A stretch of 63,178 bases of DNA, the filler included. It is 5 parts of 5 records of this genome, joined end to end, with 100 filler letters (N's around TTAATTAATTAA, not from the genome) between each part and the next. Parts side by side here need not be neighbours in the genome. Positions count along the whole stretch, not along the records: positions 1 to 13,584 come from DRR378314_839; 4 more parts are not named here. The stretch is one strand, 5' to 3'. Positions 1 to 35,116 of the stretch are shown one piece after another; the stretch's first letter is position 1, and each line of letters starts with the position of its first letter. The notes under the pieces are model-generated. The model was not told the origin of the DNA, did no database searches, and was given only the letters and a program-made list of their open reading frames with translations. A program made the translations under genes and the position numbers.

Positions 1-267
1 CTGTTTGGTGCGGGATTTGATGCCGCCCGGATGACCAGTGTGCCAGTAGAAGTGCTCGTCACGCTTCTTGCCGGTCATCTGGATCTTGTCAGCGTTGATG
101 ACGATCACGTTGTCACCCATGTCCATGTGGGGGGTGAACGACGGTTTATGCTTGCCGCGAAGGCGAGTGGCAATGATCGATGCGAGACGGCCCAGCACCA
201 CGCCTTCGGCGTCGATGATGATCCACTTCTTCTCGATATCTGCCGGGGTAGCAGAGAAGGTTTTCAT
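1..267 (-). CDS. rplM: 50S ribosomal protein L13, 5' part (runs off window start)
   Basis: Manual translation [30 protein letters not shown]...[23 protein letters not shown]...HTGHPGGIK; absent from the ORF track. Confidence 0.97.
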
Positions 268-439
268 GTCAGGTCAGTCCTGTTTGTCGTGACAATGGGG
301 CCGCGGACGACTCCATCTGAATTCGATAGACGGGGTTTACGGTGGCGTCACAAAACAGTCAACACAGGTAAACGACATTAAAATGTTTAAAAACAAAGCA
401 CTATAAATTAGGTACTATAATACCCCAGCAAAAATCGAC

Positions 440-1855
440 CTAAACGCTGATTTGCTCCGGTGGATTGTCCAGCAGCATGCGCAACCGCAGCATCGCGTCC
501 TCGAACCGGGCCAGTGTGACATGCCCATTGATGGCAATGCGTACCGCGTTTGGCGCCCGGCCATCGCGCAGTGCGAACTCATCCGCCGAGCGCAATTGCA
601 CCCCCTGCGCCTCTGCCGCGCGGGTAAAGGCCCCGGCCCGCCAGCCGGACGGAAGCCGCAACCACAGGAATGGCACCTGCGCGTCCCAGGTCAGCTCAAA
701 CGCACCAAGTGCGTTGACCGCCACCCGCACATAATCCGCCATTTCCTCGCGGACGGTCTGAACAAGCTTCTTGCTGCGCGGATCTGCCAGTAGGATGCGT
801 GTCACCTCTGCGAGCGGCTGCGCCAGACCGAAGTACCCGTATTCGGCCACCCGACGCAGGTCCGCCGATTTTCCGACCGGTGCGATGGCGAAACCAACCC
901 GCAACGCGGGCGTCAGTGATTTCGAAATAGATGTGACGTGCCAACTGAGATCCGGCGCCAGCGCCCGATAGGTCGGTGCCCGCGCCTCTCCCATCCGGTA
1001 GCAATCGTCCTCGATCACTTGTACCCCATGCCGTCGCAGCACCGACAGGATTTCCTTCCGACGTTCGAGCGGCGTAAACGTGCCGGTCGGATTGTGCACT
1101 TCCGGACTGGTACAAAGCACCGATGCGCCGGATTTCTTGATCGCGGCGTCCAGAGCCTCCGGCACGACGCCATGTTCGTCGATTGCCACCCCGACAACCT
1201 TTGCGCGCAGAATTTCCGCCGCGCGGCGAAACCCCGCGTAAGACAGATCTTCGACCAGGATCGTTGGATTGCTGTCCTTCAGGATCGCCTGCAGCACCGT
1301 CATGACCGCATTCTGCCCGCCATGGGTCAGCACGATGTCACGCTCTCCCAACGGGCCAAGAGGTGTGTCGGACAACCAGTCCACCACCGCCTGCCGCACA
1401 GGTTGATAGGCGTCACGTGTCGGATAATTCAGCAGCGCCAGACGGTCACAATCAGCGGCCTTGCGCAGCGCCTCGCGGATCAGCTTGACCTGACCGACAT
1501 CCACCAGCCTGGGGCTGAACAGGCTGACGTGATTGGGGTTTGCCCCCTCCAGCAGATGCAATTGACGCGACCAGACATCGTCCATGACCACGGTTTCGCG
1601 CTCAGCGACAAAGGTGCCCCGGCCCACTTCGGCCTGCAACAGCCCTTCATCCGTGAGAATTGTATAGGCCCGCGCCACGGTGCCGGGCGTGATATTCAGC
1701 TGATAGGCCAATTCCCGTACTGGGGGAAGTTTTGCCCCCACCTGCAATGTACCACTTTCAACTGCCAACCGTATCGTATCGGCGACCCGTTTGTACTTCG
1801 GACCCGGCCGCTCGGCCAGCGATCCGGTCAAGGTGGAGGGCCAAATTGTACCCAT
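440..1855 (-). CDS. GntR/MocR-family regulator (wHTH plus PLP aminotransferase-like domain)
   Basis: LPPVRELAYQLNITPGTVARAY...GRGTFV wHTH; HNPTG, IEDDCY, SISKSLTPALRVG. Confidence 0.93.
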   Translation of the reverse strand: MGTIWPSTLTGSLAERPGPKYKRVADTIRLAVESGTLQVGAKLPPVRELAYQLNITPGTVARAYTILTDEGLLQAEVGRGTFVAERETVVMDDVWSRQLHLLEGANPNHVSLFSPRLVDVGQVKLIREALRKAADCDRLALLNYPTRDAYQPVRQAVVDWLSDTPLGPLGERDIVLTHGGQNAVMTVLQAILKDSNPTILVEDLSYAGFRRAAEILRAKVVGVAIDEHGVVPEALDAAIKKSGASVLCTSPEVHNPTGTFTPLERRKEILSVLRRHGVQVIEDDCYRMGEARAPTYRALAPDLSWHVTSISKSLTPALRVGFAIAPVGKSADLRRVAEYGYFGLAQPLAEVTRILLADPRSKKLVQTVREEMADYVRVAVNALGAFELTWDAQVPFLWLRLPSGWRAGAFTRAAEAQGVQLRSADEFALRDGRAPNAVRIAINGHVTLARFEDAMLRLRMLLDNPPEQISV

Positions 1856-1947
1856 AACAATCTCCGCTTAGACAATCCGCGCCGCACTTTGTACGCTCTA
1901 CATACCAGTACATTCAAATTGCATCAATACAAAATGTGAGACTGACC

Positions 1948-2178
1948 ATGACAAATGTGACAGAAAACCCGACACACCTCTCCTATCTGACCAGTCGTCC
2001 GGCCCTGCCGATGATTGCAGAATTGGCTATTGGTTTTGCGGTTCTGGTCACGAAGTGGTCGGTCCGAAAGCGCACCCGTCGCCAGCTGAGCAGGCTTGAT
2101 CAGCATCAATTGCGCGACATCGGCCTGCAACGCGAGGAAGCCATGCGCGAAGGAACTCTTCCGTTCTGGAGACCCTGA
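1948..2178 (+). CDS. DUF1127 (YjiS-like) small protein
   Basis: W..RKRTRRQLSRLDQHQLRDIGL....A..E...PFWR signature; divergent from the MocR gene. Confidence 0.9.
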   Translation: MTNVTENPTHLSYLTSRPALPMIAELAIGFAVLVTKWSVRKRTRRQLSRLDQHQLRDIGLQREEAMREGTLPFWRP

Positions 2179-2204
2179 AACCCCGGGGCACAGAACCAAC
2201 TGGC

Positions 2205-2234
2205 AGGCCGGAGCTCCGTCTCCGGCCTTTTTTT
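2205..2234 (+). terminator. Intrinsic terminator after the DUF1127 gene
   Basis: AGGCCGGAG-ctccgt-CTCCGGCCT followed by a T-run. Confidence 0.85.
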
Positions 2235-2395
2235 ATGCGCGACGCCCTTTGGTGTTCATAAATTTTGCCTTGATCGAATCTCTCCGCCCTCCTATTTGCG
2301 CCTGACTTTCGGTACCGATCCCAACCCTGAACTCTTATTCGGGGGGGCGCTAAGGACCGTCTGGATTGTCATCTACTGGAACGAAGGGGCGTGTC

Positions 2396-2902
2396 ATGAC
2401 CGACGCCAACCTCTTCCAACTGGGGATCGGTCTGGAGACAGGCGCCCATGAGGAAGATACCGCCAGCGGTGTACCCACCGCTATTGTGAACTCTTTGGTC
2501 GACGCCGACCGCGAGGATCACTTCATTCGCCGCAACGGCAAGGTTTTTGCCGGCACGCATCTGATCATCGAAGTGATGAAAGGCACCGGTCTGGACTGTC
2601 AGACCCGGATCGAGGACGCCTTTCGCAAGATGGTCGATGTCTGCGGCGCAACCCTGCTGCATATCCACACGCATAAGTTCTCGCCGCAGGGCGTATCCGG
2701 CGTGGCGGTGCTCGCCGAGAGTCATATCTCCGTGCACACATGGCCCGAAATTGGCTACGGCGCGTTCGACGTCTTCATGTGCGGCGATGCCGAGCCATGG
2801 AAAGCCGTCGACGTGCTGAAATCTGCCTTCGAGACCAACATGGTCGAGGTCCGTGAACTGCTACGCGGAGAGGAAATCGTTGCCAAGGAGGTCGCCGCAT
2901 GA
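2396..2902 (+). CDS. speD: S-adenosylmethionine decarboxylase proenzyme
   Basis: GTHLI..., HKFSPQGVSGVAVLAESHISVHTWPE (E-S self-cleavage site), DVFMCG; overlaps speE. Confidence 0.95.
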   Translation: MTDANLFQLGIGLETGAHEEDTASGVPTAIVNSLVDADREDHFIRRNGKVFAGTHLIIEVMKGTGLDCQTRIEDAFRKMVDVCGATLLHIHTHKFSPQGVSGVAVLAESHISVHTWPEIGYGAFDVFMCGDAEPWKAVDVLKSAFETNMVEVRELLRGEEIVAKEVAA

Positions 2903-3753
2903 CGGATGAGGTCTGGAACACCGAACGGCTGCACGATCATTTTGCCCAATCCCTGCGGGTGAGCGAAATGTATTACGACAGCAAGACCGAGCATCAGCGG
3001 CTCAAGGTTTTTCAGAACGGCACCTTCGGGCGCATTCTGACACTGGACGACGTTGTTCAGACCACCGAGGGCGACAACTTCATCTACCACGAGATGCTGA
3101 CCCATGTGCCGATCCTGGCGCATGGGGCCGCCGAACGCGTGCTTATCATCGGCGGCGGCGATGGCGGCATTGCCCGCGAGGTGCTGAAACACGCCTCGGT
3201 CGAGCATGTCACCATGGTGGAAATCGACGCCGGTGTTGTCGACTTTTCAAAGGAATACCTGCCGATGCTGAGCCAGGGCGCCTTTGACGATGCCCGGCTC
3301 AATCTGGTGATCAACGATGGCGCGGTCTTCATGAAGGAGACCGAGGACAAGTTCGACGTCATCATCGTCGATTCCACGGATCCGATCGGCCCCGGCGAAG
3401 TGCTGTTCACCGACACCTTCTATGGCCACGCCGCCCGCGCCCTGACCGAGGACGGCATCATCGTGACCCAGAACGGCGTGCCCTTCATGCAGGGCGACGA
3501 GCTGACCAATACGATGCGGGCCTTTCAGGCGCTGTTTGCCGATGCGACCTGCTATCTTGCCACCATCCCGACCTATGTGGGCGGGCCGATGGCGCTGGGT
3601 TGGGGGAGCCATTCGACCAAGGCCCGCGCGGTTGATCTGGCCACGCTGGAGAGCCGGTTTACTGCGGCTGGCCTCACGCCGGACTATTATACGCCAGAGG
3701 TGCACAAGGCCGCCTTTGCTCTACCCGGCTATGTGAAAAAGCTCATTCCTTAG
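2899..3753 (+). CDS. speE: Spermidine synthase (polyamine aminopropyltransferase)
   Basis: LTLDDVVQTTE, YHEMLTHVP, VLIIGGGDGG, DVIIVDSTDPIGPG. Confidence 0.95.
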   Translation: MTDEVWNTERLHDHFAQSLRVSEMYYDSKTEHQRLKVFQNGTFGRILTLDDVVQTTEGDNFIYHEMLTHVPILAHGAAERVLIIGGGDGGIAREVLKHASVEHVTMVEIDAGVVDFSKEYLPMLSQGAFDDARLNLVINDGAVFMKETEDKFDVIIVDSTDPIGPGEVLFTDTFYGHAARALTEDGIIVTQNGVPFMQGDELTNTMRAFQALFADATCYLATIPTYVGGPMALGWGSHSTKARAVDLATLESRFTAAGLTPDYYTPEVHKAAFALPGYVKKLIP

Positions 3754-3775
3754 AACGACCTGAGCCGTGACATTA

Positions 3776-3806
3776 AAGCGCCCCCGGAAACCTCCGCGGG
3801 CGTTTT
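3776..3806. terminator. Probable bidirectional terminator between convergent speE and the thioesterase gene
   Basis: Imperfect CGCCC-C-CGGA/TCCG-C-GGGCG hairpin flanked by an A-run and a T-run. Confidence 0.55.
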
Positions 3807-4227
3807 ATCGTTTTGGCGGGATCGAATAGGTCATGGTTGAGCGCGCCACAGGTTCGGCCTTGCCTTCGGAAAACAGCAGCACATCCCCCACCGCCAGGGT
3901 GCGCCCCAGCTTCAAAAGCCGCGCCTGGCCCAGCAGATCGCGACCGCCGTCCGGCTTGCGCATAAAATCGAACGAGGCATTGGTCGTCACCGCCAGCGCC
4001 TCGCCGCCCAAATGCGCCAGCACCAGCGCATAAACCGCGACATCCGCCAGCGCAAACATCGACGGGCCCGACACCGTGCCCCCGGGACGCAGATGCCGCT
4101 CCTGCACATTCAGCCGCATGGTGATCTCACCCGGGCGCAGTGCATCAACGCTGAACTCGCCGTTGATCTGCGGAAACACCTCCTCCAGATAGGTCATCAG
4201 TTGCGGTGTCTCAAAAACCAGCTGCAT
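3805..4227 (-). CDS. PaaI-family hotdog thioesterase
   Basis: HLRPGGTVSGPSMFALAD, AVTTNASFDFMRKP, LKLGRTLAVG. Confidence 0.9.
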   Translation of the reverse strand: MQLVFETPQLMTYLEEVFPQINGEFSVDALRPGEITMRLNVQERHLRPGGTVSGPSMFALADVAVYALVLAHLGGEALAVTTNASFDFMRKPDGGRDLLGQARLLKLGRTLAVGDVLLFSEGKAEPVARSTMTYSIPPKR

Positions 4228-4629
4228 CCGCGCGTCTCCCCTCTGTTTTCTCGTCACTGTGCACGCAGCGGGCCTCCTCACAAGCGGATTTGCTTAGAAC
4301 GCCACGGCACTCAGAGCGTCGGGCTGGCCGTCAGGGCGCCGCAAAGAACGCTTTTTCCTAAAATTTTCGGAAAATTCAGCCTTTGTTTACGAACTGCGGT
4401 TTATTGTTTCCGTGTTGAGGCTTCTAATGAAGGCAAGAAAGTGGCAAGAGTTGGGCAAGCCAACGCGCTTGTCGCAATTTGGGCCGCTGCTTCGGACCGT
4501 CCCTCCTACCGGATCTCTCACCCGGATATGACGTCCACGAAGCTGCGGCCCTAATTATTTCTGCCTCCGCGCCTCGAACACCAACAGCTGATATTGCGCC
4601 CGCAGGTAAGCTGCCCTATTTGCCATCCC

Positions 4630-5970
4630 ATGACACAAGAGCTTCACATCGTCGGCGGCGGAATGGCCGGATCCGAGGCTGCCTGGCAGGCGGCGCACAT
4701 GGGCATCAACGTGGTGATCCACGAGATGCGCCCTAAGGTCGAAACCTTTGCCCATCAGACAGGCAATCTGGGCGAGATGGTCTGTTCCAACTCCTTCCGC
4801 TCGGATGATGACGAACAGAACGCCGTTGGGCTATTGCATTGGGAAATGCGCGCGGCCAATGGCCTGATCATGGCCACGGCAGAGGAACACCGCCTGCCCG
4901 CTGGTGGCGCGCTGGCCGTGGACCGCGATCCCTTCGCCGAAACCGTGACCGCAAAGCTCAAAGCCCTGCCCAACGTGCGCGTCTCCTACGACGAAATCAC
5001 CGAGCTGCCCGCCGAAGGCCACTGGATCTTTGCCACCGGCCCGCTGACCTCCCCCGCGCTCGGAGAGGCCATCCAGCAAGAGACCGGTGCCGAGCGTCTG
5101 GCCTTTTTTGATGCCATTGCGCCGATCATCTACGCTGAGAGCATCGACATGTCGAAGGCCTGGATGCAATCGCGCTATGACAAGGGCGAGACCGAGGAAG
5201 AGCGCACTGCCTACCTCAACTGCCCGATGGACAAGGACCAATACGAGGCCTTCATCGACGCGCTGCTGGCCGCCGACAAAACCGAGTTCCACGAAGGCGA
5301 GACCGCCGGGTATTTTGATGGCTGCCTGCCGATCGAGGTGATGGCTGAACGCGGTCGTGAGACCCTGCGCCATGGCCCGATGAAGCCCGTGGGCCTGACC
5401 AATCCGCATCAGCCGGAGATCAAGGCACATGCGGTTGTGCAGCTGCGCCGCGACAATGCGCTGGGAACTCTGTTCAATATCGTCGGCTTCCAGACCAAGA
5501 TGAAATATGGCGCGCAAGCGGATGTTTTCCGGATGATTCCGGGCTTGGAGAACGCCAGCTTTGCGCGCCTTGGCGGCATCCATCGCAATACCTTCCTGAA
5601 CTCTCCGACGTTGCTCGACCACGAAATGCGCCTGAAATCCAAACCCAATATCCGCTTTGCCGGTCAGGTCACTGGAGTTGAGGGATATGTGGAAAGCGCT
5701 GCCATGGGGCTGCTCGCCGGGCGTCTCGCCGCGGCGGAAATCCTCGGCCAGGAGCTGCCACAGGTGCCACAGGACAGCGCCATGGGCGCGCTGATCCACC
5801 ACATCACCGGTGGCGCCGAGGCCAAGACCTTTCAGCCGATGAATGTGAACTTCGGCCTATTCCGCCCCGTGGACGGATTGAAAGGCGGGCGTCGCGGCCG
5901 CAAGGACCGCTACAAGGCCTATACCGACCGCGCCAAGACCGCGTGGCAGGACTGGCTCGGCAACTTTTGA
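4630..5970 (+). CDS. trmFO: Methylenetetrahydrofolate-tRNA-(uracil-54) methyltransferase TrmFO
   Basis: [55 protein letters not shown]. Confidence 0.96.
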
Positions 5971-6006
5971 TAGACGATTTCATGGTCCCGGCGCTACACT
6001 GGGACC

Positions 6007-6621
6007 ATGAGCGAAAAATTTCTCGAAAAATCCTACGGGCTGGGATCAGTAGAAGAGACCCTTGACCACTATGACCAATGGGCGGCAAGTTACGACGCGG
6101 AGATCGCGGACAACAACTATGCCACGCCGGGTCGCATCGCCGATGCGCTCTGGTCCGTTCTGCCCGATGTCTCTGCACCGATCCTCGATTTTGGCTGCGG
6201 CACCGGCCTGTCCGGACTTGCTCTGCGCCGCGAGGGGTATGAGATCATCGATGGCCTCGATCCCTCCAACGAGATGCTGAACAAGGCGCGCGAGAAGGCG
6301 GCACATCGAAACCTCGCCCTGCTTGATGCCACGACTGCCGAGCCTTTCACGCCCGATACCTACAAGGCGGTTGTGGCCTGTGGTGTGCTGGGCACCGGGG
6401 CCGCGCCGCCAGAGGCCTTTGGCCGCCTGATGCACTGCCTCTCCAAGGGCAATCTACTGGCCTTCTCGCTGAACGATCACGCGCTTGCAGACCCGGGCTA
6501 CACCGGTGCAATGAATGAATGGCTTGATTGTGGCGCGGCGCGGTTGCTATTCAAGGAATACGGTCCGCATCTGCCGGGACTGGACTTGAACGCCGACGTC
6601 TATGTGATTGAGAAAATGTGA
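6007..6621 (+). CDS. Class I SAM-dependent methyltransferase
   Basis: ILDFGCGTGLSG motif I; YDQWAASYD. Confidence 0.85.
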   Translation: MSEKFLEKSYGLGSVEETLDHYDQWAASYDAEIADNNYATPGRIADALWSVLPDVSAPILDFGCGTGLSGLALRREGYEIIDGLDPSNEMLNKAREKAAHRNLALLDATTAEPFTPDTYKAVVACGVLGTGAAPPEAFGRLMHCLSKGNLLAFSLNDHALADPGYTGAMNEWLDCGAARLLFKEYGPHLPGLDLNADVYVIEKM

Positions 6622-7475
6622 CATTCACAACCCGTTTCGCCCCATCTCCGACCGGGCCACTCCATCTGGGACATGCTTATTCCGCTTTGCTGGCGTCTGA
6701 CATGGCGGACCGGCGAGGCGGCCATTTCCTGCTTCGGATCGAGGATATCGACCAATCCCGCGCGCGCAACTCGTGGGAAGAGCAGATCTATGCGGATCTG
6801 TCCTGGCTCGGCCTCAGCTGGCCGCATCCCGTCATGCGGCAGTCTGATCGGTTGCCGCGGTATCGCGCGGCGCTGACGCAGCTCTCCGCGCTTGGCGTCA
6901 CCTATCCCTGCCGCTGCAATCGAGCTGATATCGAGGCTGCTGCCGGTGCGCCTCAGGAGGGCGTGCCGCAATTTGGCCCCGACGGGCGGATCTACCCCGG
7001 CAGCTGCCGGGATCGCAGCATGTCCGACGCCACTCCGAACGACGTGATCCGCCTCAACATGCAGGCCGCGTTGAAGCATCTTCCAAAGCTGGGATTTATC
7101 GAGACATCAGAAGAACTCGGTGGCCATATCTCACTTGATCCAGAGCATCTGATCACCGCCGTCGGCGACATCATCTTGGTGCGCCGCAACATGGGCAGCT
7201 CCTACCATTTGTCGGTGGTGGTGGATGACGCCGACCAGGCCATCACAGAGGTGATACGCGGCGCGGATCTGTTCGAGAGCACTCAGATCCATGTGGTTCT
7301 GCATGCGTTGTTGAACCTGCCCGTGCCGCGCTATCACCACCATCGTCTGATCCGCAACGATCACGGCAAACGCTTGGCGAAACGTGACGATGCCCGCGCC
7401 ATTGCCAAGTATCGCGAGGATGGCGCCAGCCCGCAGGACATTCGCGCCCGCCTTGGCCTGGCGCCAAAACCCTAG
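6618..7475 (+). CDS. gluQ: tRNA glutamyl-Q(34) synthetase (GluQRS)
   Basis: RFAPSPTGPLHLGH, LRIEDID, CxC...YPGSC, KRLAKR; 285 aa, no anticodon domain. Confidence 0.92.
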   Translation: MTFTTRFAPSPTGPLHLGHAYSALLASDMADRRGGHFLLRIEDIDQSRARNSWEEQIYADLSWLGLSWPHPVMRQSDRLPRYRAALTQLSALGVTYPCRCNRADIEAAAGAPQEGVPQFGPDGRIYPGSCRDRSMSDATPNDVIRLNMQAALKHLPKLGFIETSEELGGHISLDPEHLITAVGDIILVRRNMGSSYHLSVVVDDADQAITEVIRGADLFESTQIHVVLHALLNLPVPRYHHHRLIRNDHGKRLAKRDDARAIAKYREDGASPQDIRARLGLAPKP

Positions 7476-7480
7476 CCTTG

Positions 7481-7852
7481 TCAGGCCATTGGCGTCATGA
7501 TCTCAACTTCATCCCCATCCCGCACGGCGGTGTAGAAACAGCTGCGGCGGTTGGTGTGGCACGCCGGTCCGGACTGGCGCACCAGCGCCAGCAGCGCATC
7601 GCGATCACAGTCCACCCGCAGCTCCACCAGCTCCTGCACATGGCCGGAGCTTTCGCCCTTGATCCAGAACGACTGGCGCGACCGCGACCAATAGGTGACA
7701 CGGCCGGTCTCAAGCGTTTTTGCCACGCTCTCCGCGTTCATCCAGGCCATCATCAGAATCTCGCCGCTCTCGACATCCTGTGCGATGCACGGCAGCAGGC
7801 CGGCCTCATTAAATGTCAGTGTTTCGGGCGAAAATTTCACCGGATCTTGCAT
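7481..7852 (-). CDS. hisI: Phosphoribosyl-AMP cyclohydrolase
   Basis: YWSRSRQSFWIKGESSGH, DCDRD, ACHTNRRSCF; start could be 7870. Confidence 0.95.
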   Translation of the reverse strand: MQDPVKFSPETLTFNEAGLLPCIAQDVESGEILMMAWMNAESVAKTLETGRVTYWSRSRQSFWIKGESSGHVQELVELRVDCDRDALLALVRQSGPACHTNRRSCFYTAVRDGDEVEIMTPMA

Positions 7853-7929
7853 GTCAAAAACCTTTTGCATCTCGGGGGCGCGCCCCTATGTATGGGGAAC
7901 ACGGCCTTAGGGAAACCCAGGAACTGCAC

Positions 7930-8382
7930 ATGTCCGGCGAAACCGACCTGATCAAGCTTTATTCGACCAAGATCCTCGCCCTGGCGGCAGAGATCCCGCA
8001 TCAGGGGCGGCTTGATGATCCCGATGCCACGGTGAAACGCCGCTCTCCACTGTGTGGCTCAACCGTGACGGTGGATGTGGCGCTCGACGATGGCAAAATT
8101 GCGCGCTTTGCCCAGGACGTCAAAGCCTGCGCGCTGGGACAGGCCGCCGCGTCCGTGGTTGGTCAGGCCATCATCGGCCGCAGCCGGGATGAGGTCGAAA
8201 CCGCCCGCGATCAGCTGAAGGCCATGCTCACCGAGACCGGCCCTGCCCCCGAAGCACCCTTTGAAGGGTTGGAGGTGCTGATCCCTGCGCGGGAGTTCAA
8301 GAACCGCCATGCCTCGATCATGCTGGCGCTCGAGGCCACGCTGGAGGCGATGCAAACGGCGCAGAAGGCCAACTGCGCCTGA
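7930..8382 (+). CDS. NifU/IscU-like Fe-S scaffold-family protein
   Basis: SPLCGSTVTVD, VKACALGQAAAS, RHAS. Confidence 0.85.
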   Translation: MSGETDLIKLYSTKILALAAEIPHQGRLDDPDATVKRRSPLCGSTVTVDVALDDGKIARFAQDVKACALGQAAASVVGQAIIGRSRDEVETARDQLKAMLTETGPAPEAPFEGLEVLIPAREFKNRHASIMLALEATLEAMQTAQKANCA

Positions 8383-8454
8383 TTTCCGCCCGCGGTTGTT
8401 GCTCCCTCCCGAGCAGAAACTGCAATTGCGCCACCCTGATCACCTGTATGAGAC

Positions 8455-8490
8455 AAAAAAACCGCCGCACATCCGGGCAGATGGCGGCGG
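8455..8490 (-). terminator. Intrinsic terminator (minus strand)
   Basis: CCGCCGC...GCGGCGG stem preceded by an A-run on the + strand. Confidence 0.7.
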
Positions 8491-8501
8491 CAAGTCATAG
8501 C

Positions 8502-8613
8502 GCTTTCATGCGGGACCCGGGACACACCAAACACCGGAGTTCACACTCTGGTGCGGACCGAACAGGCAGTCAGTCCTTGCAAGACTTGAGGCTGGTGCGC
8601 CCGGCATGAAAGC
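8502..8613 (-). ncRNA. Candidate structured RNA (3' UTR or sRNA) downstream of the 40-aa ORF
   Basis: GCTTTCATG (8502-8510) pairs with CATGAAAGC (8605-8613) and encloses the CACCGGAG/CTCTGGTG hairpin and other short stems; strand inferred from the terminator. Confidence 0.4.
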
Positions 8614-8661
8614 ACAGGCAAAAAACAGAGAAATAGCTACAAAAACAAAAAAAGGCGTGGT

Positions 8662-8784
8662 TCAGATCAGACCAGGCAGGTGAAGCCCGACAACCAACAT
8701 CACAACCAACGAGGCGGCCCCCAGAGCATCCTGCAACAGGGTGGACTGGGAATTGCGCAATGCGGATTTGAACTGTGTGACCAT
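8662..8784 (-). CDS. 40-aa small membrane protein, candidate SOS-regulated
   Basis: MVTQFKSALRNSQSTLLQDALGAASLVVMLVVGLHLPGLI; strong SD GAGGAGGT; one C-terminal hydrophobic helix. Confidence 0.75.
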   Translation of the reverse strand: MVTQFKSALRNSQSTLLQDALGAASLVVMLVVGLHLPGLI

Positions 8785-8864
8785 CTGGAAACCTCCTCGA
8801 CCTCTGTCTGCGTTCACGACGCCTTTGTTGCTCCTTTGTTCCCACTTCACGCGAGTCGTGTAAA

Positions 8865-8879
8865 GAACTTTTTGAGAAC
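8865..8879 (-). promoter_or_regulatory. Alphaproteobacterial LexA (SOS) box GTTC-N7-GTTC
   Basis: + strand GAAC-TTTTTGA-GAAC exact; second near-box GTTG-CTCCTTT-GTTC at 8827-8841; more GAAC at 8886, 8896, 8908. Confidence 0.75.
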
Positions 8880-8930
8880 ATTTGCGAACAAAGTGGAACA
8901 CACAAGAGAACAAGCCGCTGGTGGCAGGAA

Positions 8931-11021
8931 TTATCCTACGGAAATCAGGCGGATAGCCTCATCCTGCCGCAACAGCCACAGCAGGGTCCGCGCCGCACGT
9001 CCCCGGTCGCTGGTCAGATCCGGGTCCGAGGTTATCAGGGCACGGGCATCGCTCTGGGCGACCGCCATCAGATCCGCCTGTCGCTCCAGATCCGCGATGC
9101 GGAACCTCGGCAGACCGGATTGGGCGGTGCCAATGACATCGCCCGCCCCGCGCATCTGCAGATCGGTTTCGGCAATGACAAATCCGTCCTCGCTCTCGCG
9201 CAGGACCTCCAACCGTTTGCGTCCGCCCTCGGTGAGCGGCGGCTGATACATCAAAAGACATGTGGACTCGGCGGTGCCACGGCCCACACGGCCGCGCAGC
9301 TGGTGCAACTGCGCCAGGCCAAAGATCTCGGCTCGCTCGATCACCATGATGGAGGCATTGGGCACGTTGACCCCGACCTCAATCACAGTGGTTGCGACCA
9401 GAACCCGCGTGCGGCCCTCCTGAAAGGCCGCCATGGCAGCATCCTTTTCCGCCGGTGGCATCTGCCCATGCACCAGCCCCACCACATCCTCGCCCAGCAC
9501 CGCGCGCAGGTGTTTGAACCGCTCATCCGCTGCGGTCAGATCCATCACCTCGGATTCCTCGACCAAGGGGCAGACCCAGTAACACTGCCGCCCCTCGGCA
9601 ATGGCGCGGCGCAGGTGATCGACCACCTCGGACATGCGTTCGGTGCTGAGGATTGCGGTCTTGATCGGTTTGCGCCCCGGCGGTTTCTCGTCCAAGACGG
9701 AAACTTCCATATCGCCGTATTGGGTCAACGCCAGCGAGCGCGGGATCGGCGTTGCGGTCATCACCAGCACATCGGCGCGCTTGCCCTTCTCGGCCAGCTC
9801 CATCCGTTGCCGCACACCAAAGCGGTGTTGCTCATCGACGACCACCAGCCGCAGATCGGCAAAACCGACGTCCTGCTGGAACACCGCATGGGTTCCCACC
9901 AGGATCTGAATGTCGCCGCGTTGCAAGGCCTCGACCTTGGCGCGGCGGTCCTTGCCCTTGTCCCGTCCCGTGAGGATTTCCAGCACCACACCGGCGTCAT
10001 TGGCAAGCGGCTGCAACCCCTCAAGATGTTGACGCGCAAGGATTTCCGTCGGCGCCATCATCACGCCCTGCCCACCGGCCTCCACCGCAACCAGAAGCGC
10101 CATGAAGGCCACCAGTGTCTTGCCGGCGCCCACATCGCCCTGCAGCAACCGGTTCATGCGCCGGGCCGAGGCCATATCCGCCGTGATTTCCTCGATGGCG
10201 CGCCCCTGTGCACCCGTGGGCCTGTAGGGCAGCGCTGAGAGCACCTTGCCTTGCAGTTTTCCGGTGGGAACGGAGCTCCGCCCCGGCTGCTCCCGCTCCA
10301 CGGACCGGGCGATCGCCAGCGTCAACTGATGCGCAAACAGCTCGTCATAGGCCAAGCGCGCCCTAGCGGGGGCAACCGGTTCAAGGTCCTCCGCGCCACC
10401 CGGCGTATGCGCCGCGGCGACCGCCGCGTGCCAATCCTCCCAGCCCTGTTTCGCCTTGTAGCCTCCATCCATCCATTCCGGCAGCTCCGGCATGCGCGAC
10501 ATCGCACTCTGAACCGCCTTGAACATGGTCTTCTGGGTGATGCCATGGGTCAGCGGATAGACCGGTTCGAAATCCGGAATCTCCCCCGCCTCCTCGACGG
10601 GCAGCATGTGGTCTGGATGGACCATCTGCGCCATGCCGTCGAACAGTTCCAGCTTCCCAGAGACAACGCGGCGCGACCCTTCCGGCAGTTGCGCCGTCAG
10701 ATATCGGCTGCGGCCATGGAAAAACACCAGCTGAAACTCGGTATCCTTATCCGTCACGTCGATCCGATAGGCGCCCCCCTTGTTGCGCGCGGGGCGGTGG
10801 TGACCAACTGTCACCTCGACCGTGGCCGTTGTTGGCAGCTCCAGCCCCCGGATGCTGTCACGCCGCCGTCGATCCACCACGCTATAGGGCAAAGTGTACA
10901 GCAGATCCCGCGGTGCGGAGATCCGCAGTTGTGCAAAGTGCTCAGCTGTTTTGGGACCGACACCTTGCAATGTCTCCAATTCCGCAAAAAGGGGGAACAG
11001 CTGTTCCGGACGACCGCTCAT
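8931..11021 (-). CDS. recG: ATP-dependent DNA helicase RecG
   Basis: RLLQGDVGAGKT, DEQHRFGV, MTATPIPRSL, QLHQLRGRVGRG, GTAQSG. Confidence 0.97.
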   Translation of the reverse strand: MSGRPEQLFPLFAELETLQGVGPKTAEHFAQLRISAPRDLLYTLPYSVVDRRRRDSIRGLELPTTATVEVTVGHHRPARNKGGAYRIDVTDKDTEFQLVFFHGRSRYLTAQLPEGSRRVVSGKLELFDGMAQMVHPDHMLPVEEAGEIPDFEPVYPLTHGITQKTMFKAVQSAMSRMPELPEWMDGGYKAKQGWEDWHAAVAAAHTPGGAEDLEPVAPARARLAYDELFAHQLTLAIARSVEREQPGRSSVPTGKLQGKVLSALPYRPTGAQGRAIEEITADMASARRMNRLLQGDVGAGKTLVAFMALLVAVEAGGQGVMMAPTEILARQHLEGLQPLANDAGVVLEILTGRDKGKDRRAKVEALQRGDIQILVGTHAVFQQDVGFADLRLVVVDEQHRFGVRQRMELAEKGKRADVLVMTATPIPRSLALTQYGDMEVSVLDEKPPGRKPIKTAILSTERMSEVVDHLRRAIAEGRQCYWVCPLVEESEVMDLTAADERFKHLRAVLGEDVVGLVHGQMPPAEKDAAMAAFQEGRTRVLVATTVIEVGVNVPNASIMVIERAEIFGLAQLHQLRGRVGRGTAESTCLLMYQPPLTEGGRKRLEVLRESEDGFVIAETDLQMRGAGDVIGTAQSGLPRFRIADLERQADLMAVAQSDARALITSDPDLTSDRGRAARTLLWLLRQDEAIRLISVG

Positions 11022-11034
11022 GTTCTGCTCACGC

Positions 11035-13389
<2,355 letters not shown>

Positions 13390-13424
13390 CTAGAAATTGT
13401 TGTGCGTTAAGTGCCTTGCCGTGC

Positions 13425-13584
13425 TCAGGCGCCGATCGCGATCCTCGGACCACCGGTGGACAGGTCCTCCTGCGGATCGCGCAGCACATAGCCGCGTCCC
13501 CAGACGGTTTCGATATAGTTTTCGCCGTCAGTTGCAGTGCTGAGCTTCTTGCGCAGCTTGCAAATAAACACGTCGATGATCTTC
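13425..13584 (-). CDS. ctrA: Cell-cycle response regulator CtrA, C-terminal fragment (contig end)
   Basis: Manual translation [37 protein letters not shown]...; ctrA-ligA-recG order typical of Rhodobacteraceae; absent from the ORF track. Confidence 0.92.
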
Positions 13585-34316: not shown

Positions 34317-34522
34317 AACAAGCTCCTTTCGATACGAGTTTCGTTTCGAGAGGGCGCAACTGGGAGGAGTCAGCACCCCCCTCAGTCCTTAATGTCGGGA
34401 TCGTATCGTACCGTTTCAAAGCACGAATGCTCAAGAAAGTGTTGGCAGCATGTGATCCAGACAGGTACATCATAACATAAGAACACGGATTGAACGTGTC
34501 CTAGTTCACAAGGCATGGCAAA

Positions 34523-35116
34523 ATGGCAACACAACCCAGAGCGTGGCAAAGAATGCTGTCGGGCCGTCGGCTGGATTTATTAGATCCGACACCGGTGGAT
34601 ATCGAGATCGAAGATATCGCGCACGGGCTGGCCTTTGTGGCGCGATGGAATGGGCAGACAAACGGGGATTTTGCCTATTCCGTGGCCGAACATTCCTTGC
34701 TGGTTGAAGAGCTTTTTGGCCGCATCGCACCAAATGCACCCGCAAAATGGCGTTTGGCAGCACTGTTACACGACGCGCCCGAATATGTGATCGGAGACAT
34801 GATTTCCCCTGTCAAATCCGCTGTTGGCCCGGATTACGGTGATTTAGATGACCGGCTGGCTGCGGCCATACATATCCGTTTCGGATTGCCCGCTGCAGTG
34901 CCGAAAACGATAAAACGCCAGATCAAAAAGGCCGACAAGATCAGCGCCTGGATGGAGGCCACGCAAATCGCGGGCTTTTCTGAGGCCGAGGCGACAAAGT
35001 TCTTTGGCCGCCCTGACAGGGCAGTTCTGGAGGGGTTACAGATCAAACTGCGCCCACCACTCGACGTACGACAGGCCTATACCGCGCGGCACGAAGAGCT
35101 ATTATCCAGTTTCTAG
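34523..35116 (+). CDS. HD-domain hydrolase (YfbR-like)
   Basis: YSVAEHS, ALLHDAPEYVIGD, KKAD. Confidence 0.88.
   Translation: MATQPRAWQRMLSGRRLDLLDPTPVDIEIEDIAHGLAFVARWNGQTNGDFAYSVAEHSLLVEELFGRIAPNAPAKWRLAALLHDAPEYVIGDMISPVKSAVGPDYGDLDDRLAAAIHIRFGLPAAVPKTIKRQIKKADKISAWMEATQIAGFSEAEATKFFGRPDRAVLEGLQIKLRPPLDVRQAYTARHEELLSSF

Follow-up and report, generated by a model that had tools for sequence, protein, structure and literature searches.

SidA of Caulobacter crescentus is a 29-residue, LexA-controlled protein of the inner membrane that binds FtsW and inhibits division (PMC4211646), and the LexA-controlled dinI mRNA of Klebsiella gives rise, from its 3' end, to the small RNA (sRNA) DinR, which blocks the ribosome-binding site of ftsZ (PMC10907235). 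Here we analyse a locus on the minus strand of a 63,178-nt stretch of DNA (hereafter the window, whose positions are used throughout), in which a 40-codon open reading frame (ORF) downstream of recG is preceded by GTTC repeats and followed by a structured RNA; it lies inside the part named DRR378314_839 (positions 1 to 13,584). Other small hydrophobic peptides under LexA control, those of the TisB/IstR-1 and DinQ/AgrB systems of Escherichia coli, are SOS-induced type I toxins, and the CcsR1-4 RNAs of Rhodobacter sphaeroides are 3' sRNAs with C-rich loops co-transcribed with the gene of a DUF1127 protein. The 6C RNA of Actinobacteria has been linked to the SOS response (PMC5014011). The locus of the window shares with that of SidA an alphaproteobacterial host, a GTTC-N7-GTTC SOS box and a product that would be a very small membrane protein with a single helix; the role proposed is also the same. 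It is like that of DinR in having an RNA at the 3' end of a small-protein mRNA controlled by an SOS box, with an intrinsic terminator and a predicted pairing to the ftsZ ribosome-binding site (PMC10907235). On balance, we favour the view that a single LexA-repressed transcript yields both a small inner-membrane protein and an RNA in its 3' untranslated region (3'UTR), and that both products probably delay division.

The small ORF is a real, conserved, single-copy gene restricted to the Rhodobacteraceae. It spans positions 8662..8784 (minus strand; 40 codons and the stop), encodes the peptide MVTQFKSALRNSQSTLLQDALGAASLVVMLVVGLHLPGLI, and carries 7 nt before its ATG the Shine-Dalgarno (SD) sequence GAGGAGG (8792..8798, minus strand), the strong SD that the initial annotation of this DNA had reported. 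The same annotation had warned that the ORF track gives the gene a wrong, longer start, and indeed only an 83-residue version starting at TTG is listed there. The peptide has a polar basic N-terminus, and by inspection residues 16-36 are hydrophobic and make up a single C-terminal helix, in line with the small size and the one C-terminal transmembrane helix first attributed to it; we regard its location in the membrane as highly probable. An alignment of 26 sequences shows a variable, polar N-terminal third and, from T15 on, very little change, with residues D19, G22, L26, L30, L34, H35 and P37 invariant. Judged from the alignment, this pattern is one face of a predicted transmembrane helix, as expected for a specific helix-helix contact. 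Distant genera retain D..G...L...L and vary in the LHLP tail.

A search with the single peptide sequence recovered it in 20/20 same-genus genomes and, at E < 1e-4, in four of five other genera of Rhodobacteraceae, with no match in 16 genomes from outside the family. A profile built from the 26 homologues found it in 252 of the 301 genera of Rhodobacteraceae searched, in one copy in 250 of the 252, and a class-wide search gave marginal matches in only 2/249 non-family genomes (E of 0.004 and 0.009), both inside long ORFs (330 and 679 residues). The module had initially been ascribed to Roseobacter, a scope that gives way to the Rhodobacteraceae as a whole. The peptide of the nearest relative genome (G001) is identical to that of the window; among named records the identity is 100% in Tritonibacter scottomollicae and 98% in Tritonibacter mobilis, which puts the DNA of the window within or close to Tritonibacter, and the gene is also present in Phaeobacter, Ruegeria, Sulfitobacter, Rhodovulum and others. 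Source annotations call the product 'hypothetical protein' wherever they name it at all, Pfam and NCBIfam hold no family for it, and its ESM Atlas clusters are all 'hypothetical protein'. A resemblance of the peptide to the leader of Flp pilins was considered and set aside, being without Pfam support.

Most of the comparison rests on 50 orthologous loci. Besides the window, they come from 20 genomes of the same genus and from 29 other genera; these 29 were chosen as the best-scoring peptide matches, so that the sample is biased towards similarity. Start, length, frame and SD of the small ORF are conserved across genera. For the codon analysis four loci were dropped for length, and two of the remaining 46 orthologues have 42 residues and were included from their third codon onwards. 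Between pairs of orthologues, the differences amount to 0.356 at the first, 0.191 at the second and 0.562 at the third codon position, and codons 15-40 show 11774 synonymous versus 7369 non-synonymous codon differences. At least 40 of the 50 loci encode a recG-like C-terminus immediately before the small ORF.

The recG gene ends at 8931 and the ATG of the small ORF is at 8784, so the spacer between them measures 146 nt, exactly the distance that the initial annotation had given and that the sequence and the ORF list confirm. It contains five GTTC half-sites (8865..8911, minus strand) spaced by 12, 10, 10 and 11 nt. Two of them form box 1 (8865..8879; GTTCtcaaaaaGTTC on the gene strand), a perfect GTTC-N7-GTTC and the candidate main LexA operator, which directly abuts the hexamer TTTACA (8859..8864, minus strand), to which the comparison of loci assigns a probable role as -35 element. 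Further downstream on the gene strand, box 2 (8827..8841; GAACaaaggagCAAC) has the form GAAC-N7-CAAC and would be an imperfect second operator over the presumed -10 element and transcription start. Read on the other strand, these are the perfect GAAC-N7-GAAC at 8865-8879, the three further GAAC at 8886, 8896 and 8908 and the near-box in opposite orientation (GTTG-N7-GTTC, 8827-8841) that had drawn attention to the locus, each found where it had been placed. Within the window, the array GAAC-N6-8-GAAC-N6-8-GAAC gives three overlapping matches, all at this locus, against 0.09 expected, and none of 100 shuffles reaches three.

The conservation of this region among relatives is striking. Box 1 is a perfect GTTC-N7-GTTC on the gene strand in 50/50 loci, and a box 2 of the form GAAC-N7-NAAC follows it by exactly 23 nt in 49/50, its second half-site being CAAC in 45 of them, AAAC in two, and TAAC and GAAC in one each. 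The six bases after box 1 are TTTACA in 38 loci, TTTACT in seven, TTGATC in two and TTGACT, TTTACC or TTTACG in one each, all of them -35-like, and the 14 nt that come next vary freely, as in a promoter spacer. A third GTTC stands N6 upstream of box 1 in 39/50 loci. As a counter-sample to the bias towards similarity, we took 20 loci standing behind weak matches to the RNA described below, four of them from genomes that have no match to the peptide profile. The small ORF is present in all 20 (18 by pattern, two by eye) and a perfect N7 box 1 in 16; the other four show N6-spaced GTTC arrays, a perfect GAAC-N7-GAAC in the place of the second box, or both. The initial annotation had staked its proposal on the conservation of ORF and boxes in relatives, and both turn out to be strongly conserved.

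The same type of operator is found at canonical SOS genes. In 5/5 same-genus genomes the recA promoter reads TTGCAA-N17-CATAAG followed at once by GAACaagaggaGAAC, a perfect GAAC-N7-GAAC, and in 5/5 the lexA promoter has TTGACA and then, across the -10, GAACatgaataGAAC, again a perfect GAAC-N7-GAAC. The perfect repeat at both promoters indicates that the genus uses the operator type of the small ORF at its canonical SOS genes. Box 2, for its part, closely resembles the recA operator GAACaagaggaGAACaaag. LexA of Rhodobacter sphaeroides binds GTTC-N7-GTTC. The SOS box of Caulobacter is listed as GTTCN7GTTC (PMC9578287, Table 1). In our reading of the layout at the small ORF, box 1 adjoins the -35 and box 2 covers the -10 and the start, an arrangement that would make repression tight. 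The proposal of a LexA-controlled small membrane protein is thereby well supported by comparative genomics, given the conserved box and the shared operator type at lexA and recA, and we consider it highly probable that LexA binds and that DNA damage induces the unit. In a subset of the loci, all outside the window (L031-L033, L037, L039, L041, L042, L047, L052, L055, L056 and L059), box 2 runs into TCAAcaaag.cTTAAC in the 5' untranslated region (5'UTR) of the small ORF, one mismatch away from the CtrA box TTAA-N7-TTAAC; this near-CtrA box hints at a dual LexA/CtrA input.

Past the stop codon, the alignment of the loci shows a variable spacer and then a block of high conservation, which starts 0-15 nt after the stop in most genera and closes with a terminator. 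The initial annotation had drawn the module from 8455 to 8911 on account of the peptide gene and the boxes, which stand, and had missed a conserved structured RNA inside 8455-8660. This RNA, of about 170 nt (8455..8625, minus strand), sits between the stop codon and the intrinsic terminator of the mRNA itself. Folds made independently for 23 sequences share one architecture. Its 5' end is a single-stranded U-rich/GCCUG segment, UUUCUGCCUG; a long closing stem follows in two parts (about 8615-8592 with 8535-8500), with an internal loop (A/G)UCCC(A/G) on its 3' side, and encloses internal hairpins with the C/U-rich loops CCUGUCCCA, CCUGCCUGUCC and CUGCCUC. The terminator (8455..8489, minus strand; CGCCGCC...GCGGCGG and a U run) is itself conserved across genera in its stem sequence (CCGCCGCC), the stem pairs being invariant in 48-49 of 49 RNAs. 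The RNA of the window has a fold z of -5.4, and an Rfam search of 8200-9100 on both strands gave no match at E <= 1.

Applied to plain MAFFT alignments, RNAalifold returned only the terminator and four long-range pairs, and was replaced by a hand-trimmed structure and an Infernal alignment. The resulting covariance model, R1, was made from nine seed sequences and RNAalifold-supported stems. It matches 49 of the 50 loci once each, nine of these being its own seeds, and the window at 8455..8625 with 83.6 bits (E of 5e-18). In the R1 alignment, 93.9% of the cells are paired, 26 of the 33 pairs have compensatory changes, and cells with double changes number 164 versus 36 +/- 5 in shuffles, none of 500 reaching the observed value, and 18-34 in slid controls. 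Being fitted to the model, this alignment favours the structure; the margin over the controls is large. Under the stricter filters of a large search, R1 was found in 96/151 genera. In all 57 genomes with both coordinates listed, the RNA is on the same strand as the ORF and just downstream of it, at a median gap of 9 nt and within 45 nt in 53 of them. This leaves hardly any room for a promoter between the two, which argues that the RNA is made as the 3'UTR of the peptide mRNA. The RNA is thus structured, covarying and physically joined to the ORF.

The unpaired motifs of the RNA hold most of its sequence conservation, whereas its stems covary. The motif CUGCCU occurs 1.16 times per RNA, versus 0.12 expected from composition, and is present in 35/49 RNAs. 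Across these 49, the unpaired probability averages 0.84 for UGCCU motifs, compared with 0.39 for the whole RNA, and 80/85 of the motifs exceed 0.5. The window has two such candidate seeds on its minus strand: UGCCU at 8616..8620, in the 5' single-stranded segment (UUUUUUGCCUGUGC; unpaired probability 0.96), and the loop ACUGCCUGUU of a hairpin at 8555..8576, with UGCCU at 8568..8564 (0.97). Processing of the RNA into an sRNA appears to us evenly balanced between yes and no. One locus of the 50, L053 (genome G067), is alone in having no match to the RNA, and carries short tandem-like repeats (ggggcctttgt...) past the stop, which suggests an insertion or a replacement. In G001, a second, partial and weak match to R1 (G001:C10:55217-55272, 28.8 bits) probably reflects only the terminator-like part. 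A hok-like fold-back of the 5'UTR onto the 3'UTR was also considered and rejected (RNAduplex against shuffles, mean z of +0.39, 1/46 below -2).

Because of the DinR precedent in Klebsiella, ftsZ was picked as candidate target before its sequence was inspected. Its leader has an atypical conserved ribosome-binding region, aCAGGCGGa; of 19 genera, 18 have CAGGC[AG]G there and 14 the longer ACAGGC[AG]G. In 20/20 same-genus genomes, ACACAGGCGGA is invariant and its flanks vary. With one G-U pair, this core (ACAGGCGG / ACACAGGCGGA) complements CUGCCUGU, the most conserved unpaired motif of the RNA. The ftsW leaders had been fetched for another purpose and served as a control, and their link to the RNA was noticed after the fact: AGGC[AG]G is present in 25 of 30 genera, with at least two copies in 10, and 16/30 have GAGGCAG, to which the loop motif CUGCCUC is exactly complementary. 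Among control leaders the motif is found in 2/28 for murG, 1/12 for ftsA (by eye) and 2/37 for genes of the window, and ftsQ leaders have an ordinary GGAGGA. At crude gene starts across all loci it occurs in 34/283, of which 19 belong to ftsW or ftsZ. A GGCGG core in place of GGAGG is seen in 17/19 ftsZ leaders (loci L203-L232 and L302-L320) and 19/30 ftsW leaders (L153-L182); this core is a conserved peculiarity of ftsZ and ftsW, whatever reads it.

Between UUUUUUGCCUGUGC of the window RNA and the ftsZ leader of the nearest genome, a duplex of 13 bp and -18.4 kcal/mol is predicted, and when 153,874 windows of 28 nt from a contig of 385 kb in that genome were scanned by energy, the top three all corresponded to the ftsZ leader. 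Every difference among the loop variants CUGCC, UUGCC and CCGCC falls opposite a G, so that all can still pair with GGCGG. In one genus (G058), ftsZ has AGGUGG and the RNA loop reads CCACCUC in place of CUGCCUC, an apparent compensatory change. The target motif GGGACAGG shows no excess in the window (2 occurrences versus 2.3 expected). That ftsZ, ftsW or both are true targets of the RNA is a possibility that we hold with less than even confidence. Two further observations concern neighbouring leaders. At the ftsW loci L154-L182, the DNA that separates murD from the ftsW leader has, some 25-45 nt ahead of ftsW, a small hairpin conserved in many genera (of the type gacccgg-aaaa-cgggc), which could be a processing or attenuation element. 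The murG leader of Tritonibacter (L146/L153 of G001 and L144 of G009) has AGGCAGG (gaAGGCAGGcacga), which is complementary to CCUGCCU.

Put together, these elements suggest the following sequence of events. In an undamaged cell, LexA would sit on box 1 abutting the -35, and probably also on the upstream GTTC half-sites and on box 2 over the -10 and the start, and would thereby shut the promoter in the spacer downstream of recG. Upon damage, RecA-stimulated self-cleavage of LexA would lift the repression and allow a transcript of about 380 nt to be made. This transcript would encode the 40-residue inner-membrane protein, with its basic N-terminus in the cytoplasm and a transmembrane helix exposing the G22-L26-L30-L34 face flanked by D19 and H35/P37, and would run without gap into the structured RNA of about 170 nt that ends in the intrinsic terminator. 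Both products would slow division during DNA repair: the peptide would, like SidA, dock on a conserved membrane protein of the divisome, and the RNA, probably released from the 3'UTR, would act in the way of DinR and use its unpaired CUGCCU(G/C) motifs to pair with ftsZ and ftsW at their ribosome-binding regions. The role of either product in division, argued by analogy, is a possibility to which we give somewhat less than even weight, even if the single-copy, family-wide and syntenic spread of the module would seem to fit a checkpoint better than a selfish toxin. The most complete version of the scheme is unlikely to hold in all its parts: a two-armed SOS division checkpoint in which the peptide would hold the late divisome and a cleaved 3'UTR RNA would silence the translation of ftsZ and ftsW through GGCGG/AGGCAG, protein and RNA having co-evolved across more than 250 genera.

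A number of observations weigh against this account. The exact GAAC-N7-GAAC is no rarer in the window than chance would have it (2 occurrences versus 1.9 expected); the weight of the box observation rests on the comparison with relatives. No sigma-70-like promoter was found by consensus scan in 8200-9100, the -10 that we place there (GAACAA or GAGAAC) is a poor match, and box 2, which has C for G in 45/50 loci, may therefore be kept for reasons of the promoter or the 5'UTR and not for LexA. The link of the peptide to division is a guess made from the analogy with SidA. As for the RNA, the ftsZ site falls only at the 6.8% and 1.4% quantiles of random windows in two other genera, and the ftsW site at 1.9% and 16% in the same two genera and at 4% in the nearest genome. 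RNAduplex energies against shuffled ftsZ leaders have a mean z of -1.08, with 3/16 below -2, and the within-genus test of matched versus mismatched pairs is weak (140 of 5000 permutations are as low) and confounded by relatedness. The apparent compensatory change in G058 is a single case, the definitions of the target motifs were refined once the data had been seen, and some other factor could make use of the conserved GGCGG in the ribosome-binding region.

Several other explanations can be given for the same observations, and they differ in how much of the module they leave intact. The 3' element could merely stabilise and terminate the mRNA and lack a function in trans, as would befit an RNA that is always joined to the ORF and has no visible promoter of its own. 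We find this rather doubtful, because conservation in unpaired motifs between covarying stems is the pattern of a seed and not that of a mere stabiliser, and because CUGCCU is tenfold enriched over composition. Alternatively, both products could act outside division, the peptide on another membrane complex—a transporter, the respiratory chain, DNA uptake or the release of gene transfer agents—and the RNA as a trans-acting sRNA with other targets. The conserved transmembrane face implies some specific partner, and LexA has been tied to competence and gene transfer agents in Rhodobacteraceae (PMC6473078). C/U-rich loops can moreover pair with many ribosome-binding sites, and the energy scan fails to single out ftsZ in two of three genera. 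Against this stands the match between the most conserved unpaired motifs of the RNA and the atypical ACAGGCGG and GAGGCAG of the ftsZ and ftsW leaders, which are rare in control leaders, and we consider such a role outside division quite unlikely.

The small size, hydrophobicity and single helix of the peptide, together with the LexA-type box, would also be those of an SOS-induced toxin of type I, which, like TisB or DinQ, would make the inner membrane leaky or depolarise it and so bring about dormancy, the 3'UTR controlling only its own mRNA. Long structured untranslated regions are typical of the mRNAs of such toxins, and the conserved leucine face could serve self-association. Yet type I systems have a patchy and often multi-copy spread, in contrast with the single-copy presence of the peptide in 252/301 genera and its synteny with recG in at least 40/50 loci. 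The opposite strand has no promoter-like site, and no conserved element was noticed on it, although this is a weak test of an antitoxin RNA; the 5'UTR pairs with the 3'UTR no better than chance, as judged by the z values given above; and the N-terminal third of the peptide is polar and variable. A toxin is therefore improbable in our eyes. Still less room is left for the idea that the GTTC repeats are read not by LexA but by another regulator, such as a response regulator recognising direct repeats with a period of 10-11 bp, and that the unit stands outside the SOS response. The repeats are indeed direct and have helical periodicity, N6-spaced arrays recur upstream and box 2 is imperfect, but lexA and recA of the same genomes have the identical N7 repeat at their promoters, and this repeat is the documented SOS box of alphaproteobacteria, which makes the idea very unlikely. 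Lastly, the ORF is short and unannotated in many genomes—the gene table of Dinoroseobacter shibae has recG (Dshi_1510) and then a gap of 400 nt without any gene—and one might take the whole unit for an untranslated, non-coding RNA. The coding-type pattern of codon positions, the synonymous excess and the conserved frame, length, start codon and SD make this extremely unlikely. The preferred reading remains that of one LexA-repressed transcript with two products that probably delay division.

The upstream neighbour, the DNA-repair gene recG (8931..11021, minus strand), encodes an ATP-dependent DNA helicase with the Pfam domains DEAD, Helicase_C, RecG_wedge and RecG_dom3_C, and ligA is backed by Pfam as well; ctrA, which the initial annotation had also placed in this neighbourhood, was not among the ORFs scanned at 13.3-17.7 kb, the span to which that scan was confined. 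On the other side, hisI (PRA-CH; 7481-7870, minus strand) overlaps in the ORF list with a NifU-like gene (7813-8382, plus strand), which converges on the RNA terminator and so bounds the module. The other perfect GAAC-N7-GAAC of the window, at 34481-34495, lies in a recA-like context (cataacataaGAAC...GAAC), 28 nt upstream of an ORF for a YfbR-like HD-domain 5'-deoxynucleotidase (34523-35116, plus strand), which is probably a second SOS-regulated gene.

The Rhodobacteraceae are a very large family with marine and phototrophic models, among them the Roseobacter group, Rhodobacter/Cereibacter, Paracoccus and Dinoroseobacter. LexA, CtrA, quorum sensing and gene transfer agents are intertwined in this family. 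Within the literature searched, we found no SOS-dependent division inhibitor described for it, and the module may be that brake. A role in division arrest is plausible by analogy, and the conserved structured 3'UTR RNA is the new part of the picture. We found no description of the small ORF or of the RNA; PDF supplements and subscription journals lay outside the search, so that an earlier description is possible. In the supplements that we could consult, the strings 'recG' and 'helicase' and those of the loop motifs do not occur in the sRNA catalogues of Ruegeria pomeroyi (PMC4809877) and Paracoccus denitrificans (PMC5107571), and Dshi_1510 and Dshi_1511 are not listed in the table of LexA sites of D. 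shibae (PMC6473078). As the locus is unannotated in many genomes, it is invisible to transcriptome tables and regulon predictions. The module offers a natural case of one mRNA giving a micro-protein and a regulatory RNA, and the question is directly testable, as it bears on one very small locus present throughout the family, whose promoter is among the most conserved that we met in these genomes.

How, then, does the module stand among the systems from which we started? The TisB and DinQ systems differ from it in that the module has no sign of an antisense or divergent antitoxin RNA, the test being weak, and in that it is single-copy, syntenic and near-universal in its family. With CcsR1-4 and 6C it has in common a structured RNA with C/U-rich unpaired loops and the succession of a small-protein gene and an RNA; it differs in its loop, CUGCCU against CCUCCUCCC or runs of C, in its SOS-box promoter, in an RNA without Rfam match and in a protein of another family, without Pfam match. 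From SidA it is set apart by a peptide of 40 residues instead of 29, the two being likened by kind and regulation and not by sequence alignment, and by its confinement to the Rhodobacteraceae, its fixed place beside recG and its conserved structured 3'UTR RNA. DinR is unrelated to the window RNA in sequence, structure and host lineage, and its upstream protein is DinI, not a membrane peptide; the window RNA is family-wide and covarying, whereas the pairing stretch of DinR is specific to Klebsiella. As far as our searches go, we met no earlier description of a variant in which a single transcript carries the two arms and is conserved to this degree in more than 250 genera. By analogy, its peptide arm would resemble SidA, and its RNA arm DinR, in regulation and in the kind of product.

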